A DNA stretch of 64,000 nt from a virus (Duplodnaviria; Heunggongvirae; Uroviricota; Caudoviricetes). The translations under genes were made by a program, and so were the position numbers. Below the pieces are notes generated by a model. That model was given only the letters and a program-made list of their open reading frames with translations. It had not been told where the DNA came from and did not search any database. Positions 1,971 to 64,000 of this stretch are shown here, piece after piece; the stretch's first letter is position 1; the number at the start of each line of letters is the position of its first letter. The stretch lies in the IMG/VR virus record IMGVR_UViG_3300017987_005500. The stretch is one strand, 5' to 3'.

Positions 1971-3023
1971 ATGGAAAAATGTCCAGTTTGTGGAAATTTA
2001 TTTAAACAATTACATTCACATTTATCCACATGTTCAGATGAAGAACATGTAAAATATATTAATATAGTATCAGAAAGAATAGACTGGTTTTTATTAAACT
2101 CTACATATTATATGAATGAAATTCCAAAAGTAATTATGGAAAATGATGGATTATATTGTTATTCTTCTTTGGTACATAAGAGAGAGTTAGAAATTTGTCC
2201 AGGAAGAGGTTATAAAGTAATGGGTTTGAGAAGAAGAGGAAATAACAATCCTGTGTTCAAAGATGGAGTCATTGAAAAAATATCAAACACTGTTGCTAAA
2301 AAATGGGAACATGGTGTTTATGAAAATAGACAAAATGGAATGTTAGATAAGAAAGGAGTTGATCACCCTGAATTTAATGTATATACATTTTTAAAATGGA
2401 AATATAAGGAAATATATAATTATTATCATAATGATAATAAATGTTTGATTCATGGTTGTGATAAAGAAGTTGAAAATGTTCATCACATTGATGAAAATCA
2501 TGACAACTTTATGTTGACTAATTTAGAAGGTTATTGTGTATTTCATCATATGGATAGACATTACGCAGCACGAAAGACCCCATATACAGAGATAACTAAA
2601 ATTATTACATTTGATTCATGCCATAATTTATTGAATTATAACGGAAAATGTAGAAACCTTCATGGTCACACATATAAATTGGAGATTACTGTTAGAAATA
2701 GAGTTGATTTACACTCTGGAATGGTAATGGATTTTGGAACTCTTAAAAATATCATCAATAAATATGTAATTGAACCATTGGATCATAAATACTTAAATGA
2801 TGAACTACCTGAATTTAATCCAACTGCTGAAGTAATGTGTGATTGGATTTGGAGACAATTGGAATTTGAAGGAAAACTCAAAGGATTATATGAAGTTAAA
2901 CTATGGGAAACTCCAAACTCTAATGCTTCAGTCAATCAAATGGGAATGTTTTTGTCTCCATTATATGCGATGGCATTATATGATGAATTGACTCAACATT
3001 ATAAATGGGATAATAATGCTTGA
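1971..3023 (+). CDS. queD: Zn-finger/HNH endonuclease-like domain fused to 6-carboxytetrahydropterin synthase QueD
   Basis: C-terminal FDSCH..CRNLHGHTY, GMVMDF, LDHKYLN, PTAE, LWET = QueD/PTPS; N-terminal CPVC..H..H finger and HHIDENHDNFMLTNL HNH motif. Confidence 0.85.
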   Translation: MEKCPVCGNLFKQLHSHLSTCSDEEHVKYINIVSERIDWFLLNSTYYMNEIPKVIMENDGLYCYSSLVHKRELEICPGRGYKVMGLRRRGNNNPVFKDGVIEKISNTVAKKWEHGVYENRQNGMLDKKGVDHPEFNVYTFLKWKYKEIYNYYHNDNKCLIHGCDKEVENVHHIDENHDNFMLTNLEGYCVFHHMDRHYAARKTPYTEITKIITFDSCHNLLNYNGKCRNLHGHTYKLEITVRNRVDLHSGMVMDFGTLKNIINKYVIEPLDHKYLNDELPEFNPTAEVMCDWIWRQLEFEGKLKGLYEVKLWETPNSNASVNQMGMFLSPLYAMALYDELTQHYKWDNNA

Positions 3024-3291
3024 TTTTGAATTATTGCATGATCCCTGCGATGATTGTATCGTGGGGTTCTTATGTAACAAAATATGCGAATTGAAAACAG
3101 ATTATGAAACTACATTTAATTCATATGATTATCAATGCAATTTAAGAGTATATTATGCACATGAAAAAAAATGTAAAGAATTCATAAAAATGTATTTAGA
3201 AGAAGGAATGTCTCCACTACAACAAATGGCAAGGGCGATGAAATCTTATGATAACAGCGAACGAAGCAAGGGAATTGTATTTAAAGAATAA
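3016..3291 (+). CDS. Small Cys-rich protein (CxxCIVxxxCxxIC family, paralog 1)
   Basis: PCDDCIVGFLCNKICE, shared with the ORFs at 7548 and 7729. Confidence 0.6.
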   Translation: MLDFELLHDPCDDCIVGFLCNKICELKTDYETTFNSYDYQCNLRVYYAHEKKCKEFIKMYLEEGMSPLQQMARAMKSYDNSERSKGIVFKE

Positions 3292-3538
3292 TCATTCTAA
3301 CTCAATAGATGATTTTATAACCGTTTTGGATAAAGAGATTAGACATAGATCTGAAAATGGGGAATCATGTTTATATGATGCAACTTATGTACTTGTAAAA
3401 CATGGAATACACATGCCAAATTCAAAGACTCTAAAAAAGGTATGGGCAAGATTGAGTGAGTTAGGTTATATCATTGAATTTATTAAAATTTCCTTAGACG
3501 ATGAACCACAAAGAACTACCACAAAGATAAGTTGGTGA
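3248..3538 (+). CDS. Hypothetical protein
   Basis: ORF in a tightly packed + strand run. Confidence 0.55.
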   Translation: MITANEARELYLKNNHSNSIDDFITVLDKEIRHRSENGESCLYDATYVLVKHGIHMPNSKTLKKVWARLSELGYIIEFIKISLDDEPQRTTTKISW

Positions 3539-3542
3539 AAAT

Positions 3543-3944
3543 ATGAGACTATTTATACCAGAATTAGGAACGAGGTTAAGACTTATACAACCTTGGTCTT
3601 TTAATCTTTATTGTGAATCAAGGAATGACAGTCTATTGTGGCATTATGAATATTTCAAAAGAAATGAACAAGGTCGTAAATTAGACACAAACTTTAAATA
3701 TAATGACATTGTAGACAAACTTAAATTAGACATTGGATGTATTTTAAAAGTTGACAGAATATATATAAGGAAGGGAGCTAATAAATATAGCTCTGTTACA
3801 TTTCATTTAACTCTTCCTGATGGACGAAAGTCAACAAAACCACTTCAACAATGGCATGCAGATCTTAAACCAAGAAGAATTCCATTGAGATTTTGGGCAA
3901 AGTTAAATGAAGTAAATACAATTGAATGTGAAATCGTGGAGTAA
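3543..3944 (+). CDS. Hypothetical phage protein
   Basis: ORF in operon; phage-like MRLFIPELGT...LKVDRIYIRKG. Confidence 0.6.
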   Translation: MRLFIPELGTRLRLIQPWSFNLYCESRNDSLLWHYEYFKRNEQGRKLDTNFKYNDIVDKLKLDIGCILKVDRIYIRKGANKYSSVTFHLTLPDGRKSTKPLQQWHADLKPRRIPLRFWAKLNEVNTIECEIVE

Positions 3945-58027: not shown

Positions 58028-58888
58028 TTATACAATAGAAATAACTTTTTGTATAATCTCATTTATATTAGGAATATTATCTATAAACCTAATAACTTTC
58101 CAACCTTCATTTTCAATTAATAATTGTCTTTTCTTATCATATTGTTTATCTTGATGCCAATAACTATCATCATATTCAATTGCTATCATTTCACTTGGAA
58201 TTGCAATATCAATTGAAAAATTTAAACATGGATATTCTAGTTTAGTATCATTAAAATAATTAGAAATTATTTTAAATAATTTAAGTTGAGGTTTGGAAAT
58301 TTTAGTAACTCCAGCTCTAGCAGCTAAAAATCCTCCATTTAACATATAATCTCTTTGGTTGTTTCTAAATTCACTTGTCTTTTGATAACAAGGTGTTCCA
58401 TATTTCACCATACATGTATTTCGAGCCTTTAATAAACTTTCTTCACTATGCTTTTTTCCATAAAATGGATTTTTATCTCCTATTAATTTTTTCCCTCTCT
58501 TAGATAAATTACTCTTTAATTTATTTGCTTTATCAAATCCAAATTGTTGTTCATATGTCTTCCCTTTATTAGGATGAACAGAATTTGGTTGATTCAACCA
58601 ATGTTTATCTCCAAGTTTATTTTTTGAAGACTTGTCTTTGAACTTACTAGAATTACACATACATTTAACAGAGCAATATTTATGATGACCAACTACAAGA
58701 TTAACCCATTTTGTATATTGGTTGCATCCTTTATAGTTTCCATAATTTAAACAAATATCATCACCATCATTCTTTATATATTTATCATAATATTCTTTTG
58801 ATTTAATATTATGAATTCTTAAATGACTTGTTAATGCTTTTAAACTTTTGAATTCTTTTCTGCAAATCTTGCATGTAATTATTTTCAT
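58028..58888 (-). mobile_element. Free-standing homing endonuclease (C2H2 finger, NUMOD3-like repeats, DUF559/Vsr-like PD-(D/E)XK domain)
   Basis: CKICRKEFKSLKALTSHLRIH; NPFYGKKHSEES; IDIAI...IEYDDSYWH...GWKVIRF; start moved to ATG 58888 (GGGAG SD). Confidence 0.8.
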
Positions 58889-58976
58889 TTTAATTTCTCC
58901 CGTTAGAAATATTAAAAATGGGTAAGAGAAATAAAACGGGTATTTCTCAAGGTGGCCAGACCCTGTCCCCATTATT

Positions 58977-59672
58977 TTAAAAATATAAGTACCATACGAA
59001 GATAAGTTGCCTATTTGTATTCTTCACAATGGTTGGAAATGTGACTCTACTAAATAAATGAAACGGTCCTGAACTTCCTCCTGCTGTACTCGGAGATGTG
59101 AAAAGACCCGCTTCACTTAATTGATTTCCATTAGCATCCAAAGACCCAAGCGTAATTACGACTCTTGCAAGTAACCATGAATTTGAATTCTCAGGATCTT
59201 GCTCAAAAGTTATATTGTCGAAGGGATGCTTATAATAATACCCATCATGAAAATCTGCACAAGTGGCGTCCGTCGCATTAATTCCTACTGCATCATCTAA
59301 ATCTGTGTCTTCATTAGTGGGAGATACTGGATCAAAAGGATCCCCAGGAAGTGTTCCGCCAACTCCAACTCCAAACCAACTTATAAATTCATCATGTGTC
59401 GGAGTTATATTTCCATTTGCGGTTTTGGTTGCTCTAACTGCTAACCATTCTCTTCCTAAATATACCACTAAATTATGTTTACCAAGGAGCTTCATTTTAT
59501 CATCATCAGTTGCTTCATATATTTCGACAAATCCTTGGGGTGTTTTTCCGGAAGGACTAGGTTCTCCGTTCAAAGGAACATGATCCATAAGACAATTGTC
59601 CCCATAACGTTCTTCAACGCTGACAACGAGATCCTTATCTCCCTGACAAAGTTCTTTTGTATTTTCATCCAT
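58977..59672 (-). CDS. Tail fibre attachment/baseplate protein
   Basis: ANGNQLSEAGLF...LFSRVTFPTIVK...FVW. Confidence 0.6.
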   Translation of the reverse strand: MDENTKELCQGDKDLVVSVEERYGDNCLMDHVPLNGEPSPSGKTPQGFVEIYEATDDDKMKLLGKHNLVVYLGREWLAVRATKTANGNITPTHDEFISWFGVGVGGTLPGDPFDPVSPTNEDTDLDDAVGINATDATCADFHDGYYYKHPFDNITFEQDPENSNSWLLARVVITLGSLDANGNQLSEAGLFTSPSTAGGSSGPFHLFSRVTFPTIVKNTNRQLIFVWYLYF

Positions 59673-59896: not shown

Positions 59897-60772
59897 GTGG
59901 CAAAAGCAGCAGATGAAAAGAAAACAGCAGCATCAAAGACAGCACCGAAACGTAAAACAAAAAGTGAACGTGAAAAAGAACTTGACAAAATGGTCAGGGG
60001 ATTTAAACCTTACTATGTTGATGTTACCGGTGAATACATTTCAACAATTTCGGGTTCCCGCCCTGAGGATACTGCTAAACTTATCAGTAAACCCTCAAAG
60101 ACAGTCAATGAAGAGCTTCATAAAATTATGAAAGCTCAGGTTGAACTCTGCCTGCAAAAGGGAGATATTGAAGGAGCAACTGCGGCAGTAGATGCTTTCC
60201 AGAACTCTGGAAATGATTTTTCAAATCCCCTTCATGTTTTTCAACGGGATGAACAATGTGGCAGAAGACCTTTTCAAGGAGCTTATATGTTCTTTGGTGC
60301 CTTCCGAGATACTATAAAGATGGCATATCCCAAAGACTTTAATATCTATATTAAGGTTAAAAATACATCCGGACCAAGTATAAAGCACTTAAGAAAGTCT
60401 GTGCGAGTTGCCCCGGATCATATTTTCCTCATGAAAGATGAGGATAATTACATGGAAGAAAGTGATATTGTTATTGAAAATCAGCACCCTGTTCCTCCAG
60501 ACGTTAAGGGTTTCTCTCGTTTTGAGATTCTCCCAAAAGGAGCTATTGTGAAATACCGACTTGAAGTTCACAGCTGTACTCAATTCAATGCACTTGCTGA
60601 TCTCGAGCTTGTTAAGAAAGTGATTATCCAAAGTGCCCTTCACGGAATTGGCTCACGACGAGCTTCCGGTTATGGCCAATGGAAAGTTAAAAAGATTGAA
60701 TTCCATGAGATGGCAGCAATGGAGGGAAGCGATGGACAAAAAGAGGATGAAGACGTCAGCAAGGCTGCGTAA
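59897..60772 (+). CDS. Stand-alone Cas7/Csm3-group RAMP protein (putative RNA-guided effector, Vipr-like)
   Basis: RAMP motif order: beta1 YVDVTGEYISTISGS; FQRDEQCGRRPFQGAYMFFGAFRD (P.ipgsslkGalR-like); FEILPKGAIVKYRLEV; C-terminal G-loop HGIGSRRASGYGQWKV; GTG start after AAGGAG; no other cas genes in the window. Confidence 0.85.
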   Translation: MAKAADEKKTAASKTAPKRKTKSEREKELDKMVRGFKPYYVDVTGEYISTISGSRPEDTAKLISKPSKTVNEELHKIMKAQVELCLQKGDIEGATAAVDAFQNSGNDFSNPLHVFQRDEQCGRRPFQGAYMFFGAFRDTIKMAYPKDFNIYIKVKNTSGPSIKHLRKSVRVAPDHIFLMKDEDNYMEESDIVIENQHPVPPDVKGFSRFEILPKGAIVKYRLEVHSCTQFNALADLELVKKVIIQSALHGIGSRRASGYGQWKVKKIEFHEMAAMEGSDGQKEDEDVSKAA

Positions 60773-60797
60773 AACAGTAGCGAGAGGAGGAAATATT

Positions 60798-61013
60798 ATG
60801 GCAAAAGGAATGGCCGATATGATGGTCGAAACTGCGGAGAAACTTCTTGATGGAGAGGTTCCTTTAAAGACTGGTGAAGTCGTTGCCAAAGTAGGTAATA
60901 TACATCAGCTTGAACGCAAAAGAGATCATGATGCTCACGATCGTGGATTAAATGATGAAAATCTTAAAGGTTTTCAAAAGATTTGTAAACAATCTACGAA
61001 AAAGAAAAGATAG
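60798..61013 (+). CDS. 71-aa protein co-transcribed with the RAMP gene
   Basis: GAGGAGG SD before ATG 60798; MAKGMADMMVETAEKLL...KKKR. Confidence 0.7.
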   Translation: MAKGMADMMVETAEKLLDGEVPLKTGEVVAKVGNIHQLERKRDHDAHDRGLNDENLKGFQKICKQSTKKKR

Positions 61014-61023
61014 CAAATGGATA

Positions 61024-61050
61024 ATGGGGCGAGTTATGAGATCGCCCCAT
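61024..61050 (+). promoter_or_regulatory. GC-rich hairpin between the ORFs and the array (terminator/processing/leader)
   Basis: ATGGGGCGA-9nt-TCGCCCCAT. Confidence 0.6.
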
Positions 61051-63028
61051 CCATGGAATATAGTTATATTTATTCCTCTTTCATGGTTTTCTTTTATATT
61101 TAATAGAATGCATAATATATCGAATCCGATCCTATGACATTCTATGTTGTATAATAGAATCCGACGCAATCACATTTTATTCACTAAAATGGGTTGAAGT
61201 TTAACCCATTTGCAATGTGAGCTATGATGCAACCGAATGAAATCATATTAAATAATCTAATAATTTAATTTAATTTGGTTAAATATTTTGTTTTGGTGTA
61301 GAATGTTATTCCATATTATTAATTTTAAATTCCTTACGTTATGATATAATTCAATTTTATTTGATTCGATTTACATATGTAATATTATTTTATGGGACAG
61401 CATCCATTTCAGTTGGATAAAATTCGATATACTATAAAACTTAATTGATTAGCACGTAATTCAATATAATTCCATCCGATCCATTTTTAAAGCAATTCGA
61501 CACAGTACGATCCGGTCGAATAAGTTGTAATTCAATCATATGCATTATTTTATTTAATGCTGTGAAGTATAATTGAATAAAATGGTATTCATAATTCAAT
61601 GCGATGATAAAGAATGCGGTCCTGTCTCATTGAGTCGAATAGAATGGAATTACCTTTTAACTTAAACTTATTTCAACATGAACATATTCAATGCGATATA
61701 ATGCACAATATTATCTCATCCTATTCAGTGCGAAACTATTGAATAAGTTCCTATCCAATGAAATTCACAATTAAATAATGTATGGTAGCTTGTTTTGCTA
61801 TGCGATTATATTTCATCCATAAGTTTTACAATGCCAATAAATAAAATATGCAGTAAAATAGGCATTGAGAGCTTTTGATTTTATGTCATTTTAATCAGTT
61901 AAATCGAATGTCATTCATAAAAGAATATTATTCGTTATCGTATGGTGTGATTCAATTTAATGCTATGTTATCAGATTCACAATAATATACAATGCAAAGA
62001 TTTCCTAAGAGATCCAATATAATTCCGTAAATCGTAAGATTCTTTGCGACTCATTTTAATTCGTTATGGCGCCGTTGAATAACATAATATTCTCTATTCT
62101 ATTTTACCGGTTACGTTCCTATTTGGTAAAATGGTATTTTATTTGATTCAATGATATTTACTTTGTAATACAATGCAAATATGTTCAATACTATGCGTTG
62201 CTATGCGATCCTATTCATTATACATTCAATTTAATACAATATTTTATAATTGAATAAGGTCTTATAAACTTTTTAATCTTACCCGTTCCTATTTAATACC
62301 ATTTAATTCTATAAATTATTCAACTGGTTAGTATGGGGTATTATGGTTTGTAATTACGTAAAATTGTATACATACGTAATATTGATCACTGTATAATTGG
62401 GTATAATACAATACAATCTATATTTCACTGAATTGACTTTTAACGTATCATGCAGTATTATACAATTATGTTCAATTAAATAATGTTTTATGTATTATGA
62501 TATGGAATAAAGTAATGTAGAAAGAAATCCTATCTGATAGCATTTTATACAATCTATATTTGAATTATATCCATTATAATACAGTTCAATGCGATACAAT
62601 ATAATTAAATTTCATTAATGATTCAATGTTACCGGTTTCGATACAATTTGTTAAATTATTATAAATAATTTGATCAGATCGAATTTAATCAAGCATTTCT
62701 TCTTAATATCTGATTGAATGCTATTCAATATATGATGGATGCGACGCCATTCCTTTGAATATTATGAAATAGTATATTATTCATTATTTAATTAGGTATA
62801 ACAACTTTCAATTTTATATTATATCATTCGATAAAATGAACGTTTTAATTGAATCTATTTCTATACGAAGCCGTTCCATGCTATTTTATGCGATGTCATA
62901 GATCTTTTAATTAGATGCTATGCATTTCCATTGATTGGTACCGAATTCTTTACATTTCATTCCAATTCTATCGAATAAATATCTTATATATTTTATGTTA
63001 ACTTTTTACTAAATTTAACTAAATAAAT

Positions 63029-63075
63029 AAATAAGGAATATAATAAAATTAACTAAAAAATAACAAACCTTATTT
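63029..63075 (+). repeat. 47-nt non-periodic element, copy 1
   Basis: AAATAAGGAATATAATAAAATTAA...CAAACCTTATTT; near-identical copy at 63551-63597; terminal AAATAAGG/CCTTATTT inverted repeat. Confidence 0.8.
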
Positions 63076-63550
63076 AATATGTTTTCCAATGCAGTTGAGT
63101 AAAATTCTATTCATGATTAGATATAATAATTTTATGTTTAATACAATATGGTCAAATGTCTTAAGATACAATTTTATTTAATAAATGATTCGATTAATTT
63201 GAATTAGGTTCGATCCATTTACATAGTATTGTATGGAATAAAATACATAATTTGATGGGTTAGGATGTGATAGCTTATGGTATTATTGAATACAATTTTA
63301 TTAATAATTTCATATGATAAAACTCCATATTATTCTATTCTGTCGGGTTACATTCGATCAAATGTATAAAATATTCGTAATTGGATTCTTTGGGATTTAT
63401 TAAGTTTCGATCCTTTTACATCTCATTCTATTTAATAAATCTTTAATATGACTCTATTTGATTAGATGGAGTTCATTAGCACCCTTTTTAATCTAATAAA
63501 ATATACTTTATTTTATATTACTGTATGAGTTTGGGTAATATGAAATCAAC

Positions 63551-63597
63551 AAATAAGGAATATAATAAAATTAAAATAAAAATATCAAACCTTATTT
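63551..63597 (+). repeat. 47-nt non-periodic element, copy 2
   Basis: Near-identical to copy 1, 522 nt downstream. Confidence 0.8.
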
Positions 63598-64000
63598 ATA
63601 ATACCATCCTAAAAGATGTAATTTTATAACATTCTATTTAATAAATCTCTATTAGGATTGAATCTGATATCATGCAGTTGGATAAGTTCCAATAAAATTG
63701 TGTTTTATATATCATAGAATATTATTCATTGATATCCGTTATCTTATAATCCTGTGTCATATAATATCATAAACCATTAATACTTTATTATACTGTATTA
63801 TATCTTATCCAATTATATGAAATCTCATCCACATGGTATAAAATGTGATAGCTTATGGTATTATTGGATACAATTTCATTGATCATTGGATACTTTTGGA
63901 TTCATTCCGATGTCTTATGATCCTATTCAATGTTATTTATATTTTAATTACATCACATTGATTATGTTCCGATCCGTTAGAATTAAATTAAATGCGATTC

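Follow-up and report, generated by a model that had tools for sequence, protein, structure and literature searches.

A putative VIPR-type guide array in a large phage includes a guide to the 5′ end of hsdM

The DNA considered here is a stretch of 64,000 nucleotides (the window) from a virus of the class Caudoviricetes, recorded in IMG/VR as IMGVR_UViG_3300017987_005500. Towards its end it carries the gene of a 291-aa RAMP protein, a small gene for a 71-aa protein and, downstream of both, an array of five-nucleotide-periodic DNA with a total length of 3.35 kb, in which individual guide units can be distinguished (Table 1). The part of the array beyond the window was taken from locus L139, which is identical in sequence to the window. 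Three independent samples contain the phage without any difference in sequence, L139 being a contig of 163,304 nt, and a CheckV-type completeness of 23% for the 72-kb record points to a genome considerably larger than 160 kb. No relatives of the phage or of its RAMP gene were found in the phage collection or in IMG/VR, and no TGT gene is present in the 72-kb record of the phage. Upstream of the RAMP gene, separated from it by one ORF, a homing-endonuclease-like gene lies on the opposite strand.

Table 1. Features of the locus; positions are those of the window, continued past its end in L139
Feature	Position	Strand	Remarks
Homing-endonuclease-like gene	58028–58972	−	zf-C2H2, NUMOD3 and DUF559/MTES_1575 nuclease domains
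ORF	58977–59672		231 aa
Cas7-like RAMP gene (Vipr-like)	59897–60772	+	291 aa; G-rich loop GIGSRRASGYG
71-aa accessory gene (vap-like)	60798–61013	+	directly after RAMP gene; no known family
G+C-rich hairpin	61027–61049	+	between 71-aa accessory gene and array; from sequence directly
Pentamer-periodic guide array	61051–64000, on past window end to ~64403	+	periodicity, segmentation
Guide unit, 11 pentamers	61486–61546	+	NN code corresponds to codon positions 1–2 of HsdM ACDTFRGVVDA
Guide unit	61653–61705	+	only the 3′ four pentamers well formed; resembles MzaB/MORC-like GHKL N-box
Guide unit, 10 pentamers	61980–62031	+	target-less in the scans made
Non-periodic A/T-rich island	62977–63078
Non-periodic A/T-rich island	63503–63596
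Hairpin and T run, terminator	~64413–64455		9 bp, G+C-rich; 3′ of array, read in L139

Against Pfam the 291-aa protein matches the RAMPs family with E = 0.009. Folding from the single sequence reached a pLDDT of 36 only and was unusable, and the structure discussed here is an AF2 model built on an alignment of 38 homologues (A1), which reached a pLDDT of 87.8. The best Foldseek matches of this model are Cas7 of type VII, Csm3/Cmr4 and Csf2 (E ~1e-7), and on this basis the protein is predicted to have the Cas7 fold; both the predicted fold and the G-rich loop are features of the Cas7 backbones of class 1 systems (Csm3/Cmr4, Csf2 and type VII Cas7). A word-based protein search returned the query protein alone, and an exhaustive HMMER search yielded 45 homologue clusters. 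Among the neighbouring genes there is no second match to a RAMP or cas family, and the window is without cas1, cas2, cas5, cas6, cas8 and cas10. For the 71-aa protein no PHROG match was obtained, and Pfam was null on the overlapping 126-aa frame (60633–61013); homologues of 66–71 aa with 31–38% identity follow the RAMP gene in three related loci (L143, L144 and L145). Neither of the two proteins shows a recognisable nuclease or effector domain.

Within the window the array is A/T-rich, lacks ORFs and contains many weak internal repeats. Its identity at a lag of five nucleotides is 0.42 against about 0.30 at other lags and 0.29 at lag 5 in a coding-DNA control, and it declines slowly across lags 10, 15 and onward. 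A phase-tracking model resolves about 54 real blocks of 9–14 pentamers each, and the junction between blocks is in 36 of 57 cases a jump of exactly +2 nt in phase; the units abut through these mostly 2-nt junctions, and a structured conserved 3′ tail between units is absent. On the plus strand the first position of the pentamer is A (.72), T (.16) or G (.10) and the second is T (.91) or C (.06), followed by two variable positions (N N) and by a fifth position, here called x, which is A at.44 and G at.19. As RNA the pentamer can be written 5′-U-N-N-x-R-3′, which by its sequence is a degenerate, A/U-rich version of Y-N-N-G-G. A search of Rfam over the array gave no match, apart from one weak sub-threshold match at the terminator hairpin, and a promoter scan was uninformative in this A/T-rich DNA. 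The two A/T-rich islands that break the array have in common a 56-nt element (63021–63076 and 63543–63598, 89% identity), and these islands may serve as internal promoters or as signals for processing, by which the array would be split into sub-arrays. Some blocks, for instance those beginning at 61486, 62269, 62841 and 62903 and also the stretch 61653–61685, open with a T-rich motif of the form YY-TTTTA-A that conforms badly to the pentamer rule, and this motif may represent a unit start or a processing signal.

The periodic array is a recurrent companion of this RAMP family. Relatives were fetched as loci L142–L148, which represent four distinct RAMP clusters (L146 and L147 are identical to L145), and every one of them has 5-nt-periodic non-coding DNA downstream of the RAMP gene on the same strand, with L143 having such DNA upstream of the gene too. 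Segmentation of five of the related arrays (L142, L143, L144, L145 and L148) gave the profile [A/G]-T-N-N-x; in the higher-GC loci L142–L144 x is G-rich and the next base is also more often G. In L148 (1668–2660), which comes from the same ENA study, a conserved motif of about 11 nt, similar to GAAGTTTATAT, separates the units, and set against the 2-nt junctions of the window array this indicates that array punctuation varies within the RAMP family. The guides of the L142 array (2977–3563) decode to NAPTGSGKT, CHGCGKKG and VIDIDT, in which the Walker A motif of a helicase, the zinc finger of a primase and a prim-pol-like motif, respectively, can be recognised, and this suggests that the L142 guides are aimed at replication genes of other phages. 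Since these guides decode to conserved motifs, aiming at protein motifs seems to be general in this RAMP family.

How the array is read can be deduced from the composition of its positions and from the one guide for which targets were found. The earlier note had quoted three stretches of the array that spell out peptide motifs, and these exist as quoted: the minus strand, after removal of the AT of each pentamer, translates to ACDTFRGVVD(A), AIAECIDNY and LDIGSGSAV(F). The decoding that this implies, three bases of each pentamer with no base skipped, is probably not the one in use, as the third base agrees with the HsdM targets at a mean of only 4.2 of 10 positions. We set the no-skip decoding aside also because the third base is purine-biased and stops are not clearly depleted (10 seen, 14.9 expected). 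The data fit instead the VIPR code, in which two of five bases are read and one wobble base of the target is skipped. The base x is purine-biased in the window and G-rich in L142–L144, which indicates that it is part of a scaffold triad and not derived from the target. In two paralogous units (63248–63304 and 63832–63882) the N bases are the same at 18 of 20 positions and the x bases at 6 of 10, and from this comparison the two units probably address variants of one target.

In base composition the complements of the two N positions agree with codon positions 1 and 2 in phage genes. For position 1 the frequencies of A/C/G/T are.30/.16/.33/.21 in the guides and.36/.13/.31/.21 in phage genes, and for position 2 they are.38/.18/.14/.30 and.38/.19/.14/.29, respectively; it is this codon-like composition that makes the decoded strings resemble peptides. 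The earlier note had taken the GC-rich decoded codons as a sign of non-self origin, an argument that the composition does not bear out, because in GC content the N positions do not exceed codon positions 1–2 of the phage. The third decoded base is the purine-biased scaffold base, the excess of C at that position being simply the complement of G in the triad, and C/G-rich decoded codons are thus uninformative on origin. Classified by composition, with a classifier that recognises 83% of true cases, 39 of 44 units have antisense polarity relative to coding strands (p ~1e-7), a one-polarity bias that may mean that this subtype prefers one strand or targets RNA.

One of the seven guide patterns scanned has exact targets, and this is the unit at 61486–61546. 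It was scanned as a pattern of 22 specified bases with one free base between pairs (xNN), for which about 0.07 matches are expected by chance in 596 Gb, and it returned exact matches at at least 120 loci in genome_contigs and 15 in viral_contigs (IMG/VR). All of the 135 matches listed agree at 22 of 22 bases and are in frame, with every skip on codon position 3, and an HsdM homologue is present in 135 of 135 of these loci. The earlier proposal that this unit is aimed at HsdM of type I restriction-modification (R-M) systems is thereby borne out. Among the matches listed, the matched motif is W.ACDTFRGVVDA..YKDYIL..LFLKYISD in ORFs of roughly 500–600 aa, and the target starts at a median of 48 nt past the first in-frame ATG, the two quartiles being 48 as well. 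Pfam assigns the target ORFs of two loci examined (L059 and L125) to HsdM_N (E = 3e-29 and 1.7e-28) and to N6_Mtase (E = 1e-100 and below). In L059 the target HsdM is followed by HsdS (Methylase_S) and HsdR (HSDR_N) and preceded by a SIR2-like gene, and in L125 it lies between RhuM and a serine recombinase; all of the matches listed lie in HsdM. The genomes among the matches listed include Alphaproteobacteria, Verrucomicrobiota, Actinomycetota, Acidobacteriota, Binatia and others, with Silvanigrella and a Rickettsia endosymbiont among the low-GC genomes. Stretches of 40 HsdM residues are near-identical in unrelated phyla among these matches, which implies horizontal spread of the gene. At the level of sequence it is confirmed that the unit addresses the extreme 5′ end of hsdM as a protein motif, codon usage being irrelevant. 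No match within the 135 HsdM loci was found for the other units of the array, nor for the guides of the five segmented related arrays.

The second peptide quoted in the earlier note had been read as the N-box of a GHKL ATPase, and for the corresponding unit (61653–61705) the resemblance stands while an exact target does not. Exact scans of viral contigs with 20 or 18 specified bases gave no matches, and a scan of 401 Pseudomonadota genomes with one mismatch allowed gave one match against three control matches, which is the chance level; the flanks of this single match resemble what we take to be a decarboxylase-type enzyme. Compared with 30 HATPase_c_3 loci, the unit scores at best 15/18 and 14/18, and five of the six top matches lie on the N-box (AFAEFIDNS, AVAELIDNS and similar); shuffled versions of the unit reach a score of 15 in 14 of 200 trials. 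Among four of these N-box proteins PADLOC recognises MzaB twice and PD-Lambda-5_A once, and the fourth matches no model. The motif given in the earlier note, AIAELIDNS, occurs 8 times among 120 MzaB-like homologues, and the Cys or Trp that the unit specifies at motif position 5 occurs in none of the 120; against low-GC versions of AIAELIDNS the unit agrees at 16 of 18 bases at best. Taken as a sequence comparison, the unit is a near miss to the N-box of a GHKL defence-type ATPase, which is suggestive of such a target.

For the third peptide, which had been assigned to motif I of class I SAM-dependent methyltransferases, no target emerged and the assignment is not supported. The exact scan of viral contigs with this unit (61980–62031) gave no match, and none was found with up to two mismatches in five low-GC genomes that bear the HsdM target. 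In metagenome contigs there were three matches where about one is expected, a chance-level result, and these lie in DNA of 60% GC, have no family in common and in no case fall at motif I. The unit is also the poorest compositional fit to the usual polarity of the array, so the peptide reading may not apply there. Exact scans of three further units (62903–62976, 62159–62222 and 61706–61767) in viral contigs gave no match.

The closest known counterpart of this locus is VIPR, described in a preprint of 2026 (bioRxiv 10.64898/2026.04.26.720920). As described there, VIPR consists of a phage-encoded ancestral RAMP (Vipr), vap as a small accessory gene, and vrRNAs of 9–16 YNNGG pentamers; pairing with double-stranded DNA is confined to NN, a single target base that falls on the codon wobble is skipped, and a target match is set at at least 80% of NN (bioRxiv 10.64898/2026.04.26.720920). 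The preprint also calls these RAMPs unrecognisable from sequence, describes staggered arrays without separate tails, and gives the variants of the consensus as "a related consensus", NNNGG, YNNNG and NNNNG, with the A/U triad not among them (bioRxiv 10.64898/2026.04.26.720920). In our reference locus, that of phiSUSP1 (KT454805.2, 27.6–29.25 kb), the YNNGG repeats lie on the strand of the phiSUSP1 genes. The locus described here resembles VIPR in having a lone phage-encoded Cas7-like RAMP gene with one small accessory gene, followed by tandem pentamers of non-coding DNA that run along the gene strand, in the same orientation as in phiSUSP1, with three constrained and two hypervariable positions. 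Reading of NN with a one-base skip on the codon wobble is likewise seen, for one guide (61486–61546), and as in VIPR there is no self-targeting, here under six pairing rules over 72 kb of the 163-kb phage contig.

There are also clear differences. The triad is x-[A>G]-U and A/U-rich here, whereas it is GGY in VIPR, and in place of the approximately four vrRNAs of roughly 100 nt each in phiSUSP1 there are about 54 head-to-tail units with mostly 2-nt phase jumps and no conserved 3′ tail. Nearly all units have one polarity, unlike VIPR, whose complexes, according to the main text and methods of the preprint, bind double-stranded DNA such that either strand works, with targets on both strands (bioRxiv 10.64898/2026.04.26.720920). 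A comparison of alignment A1 with the 195-aa and 146-aa proteins of phiSUSP1 by hhalign gave a probability of 0.2%, that is, no similarity to Vipr by sequence. The target class is a further point of difference: natural vrRNA targets are mainly satellites, prophages and other VIPR loci, and rival phages too, and hsdM is absent as a target class from the preprint's main text and methods (bioRxiv 10.64898/2026.04.26.720920). Considered as a whole, the locus fits a VIPR-type system and would be a variant of the kind published in 2026.

Likeness to class 1 CRISPR-Cas would extend beyond the predicted fold, if the guide is held at a fixed period with some of its bases barred from pairing. In the present array, however, the period is 5 with two bases read, and in CRISPR it is 6 with five read; there is moreover no repeat-spacer array and no known acquisition of guides, unlike CRISPR-Cas. 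Phages possess other tools against host defence. Ocr, ArdA and DarA/B are protein anti-restriction factors against type I R-M, with Ocr and ArdA inhibiting the enzyme already present, and phage ICP1 uses a canonical CRISPR-Cas with contiguous spacers against the PLE island, an RNA-guided attack on an anti-phage element of the host. If our inference holds, the array would belong with these as a phage tool against host defence. It would differ from Ocr and ArdA in that the gene is addressed, via a code that disregards the wobble base and matches a protein motif in many phyla, and from ICP1 with its contiguous spacers in that the guide consists of wobble-blind pentamers.

The reading that we favour, with moderate confidence, is that a large phage carries a VIPR-type guide array whose hsdM guide blocks the expression of host hsdM. 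The plus-strand array would be co-transcribed with the genes of the RAMP and the 71-aa protein, and the transcript would be cut into units of 9–14 pentamers, 5′-U-N-N-x-R-3′. Each pentamer would then be held by one RAMP subunit with the x-R-U triad buried, so that the two N bases pair with two adjacent target bases and one target base, the wobble, is skipped. The resulting RNP would bind 48 nt past the start of hsdM, which comes first in many type I R-M operons, and would block hsdM expression; by polarity hsdS and hsdR would also go down, leaving the infected cell with less restriction and less modification. The unit at 61653–61705 may in the same manner be aimed at a GHKL defence ATPase, at its N-box. 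Silencing of host restriction by the phage, which the earlier note had proposed, is plausible on this analysis, and the position of the site in the first gene of the operon makes it a reasonable inference. Transcriptional silencing would leave in place the restriction enzyme that is present at infection.

A different use of the same machinery deserves attention. The hsdM guide could serve in conflict between mobile elements and be directed, by way of the conserved hsdM start, at rival prophages, islands or plasmids that carry this widely transferred R-M cassette, rather than at the host. It is in keeping with this that the natural vrRNA targets named in the preprint are mainly satellites, prophages and VIPR loci (bioRxiv 10.64898/2026.04.26.720920). 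In the present data the 15 exact matches on IMG/VR contigs, the HsdM of L125 with its RhuM and serine recombinase neighbours, the horizontal spread implied by near-identical 40-residue HsdM stretches in unrelated phyla, and the L142 guides that decode to phage replication motifs all point the same way. On the contrary, many matches lie in ordinary chromosomal hsdM-hsdS-hsdR operons, such as that of L059 with its SIR2-like neighbour, and we regard inter-element conflict as the purpose of this guide to be rather unlikely. The two readings overlap, since repression of R-M aids the phage whoever carries the gene.

It is also conceivable that the target is the messenger, with a RAMP–RNA filament assembling on sense transcripts and causing a block of translation or decay. 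The antisense polarity of 39 of 44 units would suit such a mechanism, as would the single verified guide, which is antisense to hsdM mRNA, and the nearest solved folds of the modelled RAMP protein are Cas7 of the RNA-targeting type III and type VII complexes. The polarity bias is equally explained by a preference for the non-template DNA strand, however, and the characterised VIPR complexes, as far as the main text and methods of the preprint describe them, bind double-stranded DNA on either strand (bioRxiv 10.64898/2026.04.26.720920). A further point against it is that neither the 291-aa nor the 71-aa protein has a visible nuclease or effector domain, and mRNA targeting appears improbable. 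That the array is instead structural or repetitive DNA, such as an origin, a packaging region or an A/T-rich satellite, with a coincidental HsdM match, might be suggested by its A/T-rich, ORF-free sequence with many weak internal repeats and by the fact that most units are without an identified target. This explanation is contradicted by at least 135 exact in-frame matches against about 0.07 expected, and the codon-like composition of the N positions and the periodic DNA that accompanies distant RAMP homologues on other contigs also speak against it, so that we find it hardly credible. Returning to the VIPR-type guide array as the preferred reading, we would extend it tentatively, and with more doubt than belief, to a wobble-blind code that operates at the level of protein motifs and shuts off whole families of defence genes (hsdM and possibly MzaB-like GHKL genes) in a subtype that reads the sense strand or mRNA.

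VIPR has been described only in 2026, and an R-M gene as guide target would be a class beyond those in the main text and methods of the preprint (bioRxiv 10.64898/2026.04.26.720920). The locus also widens the known guide grammar, with an A/U triad, about 54 contiguous units and a single polarity, and this wider grammar helps in finding and engineering more VIPR-like systems. Because the wobble base is skipped, a single guide is enough to reach a protein motif in genomes that differ greatly from one another. If the hsdM guide acts as proposed here, phages own an RNA-guided way to disarm restriction, and if true this would amount to a broad-spectrum, programmable counter-defence and to a new biological role for VIPR-type systems.
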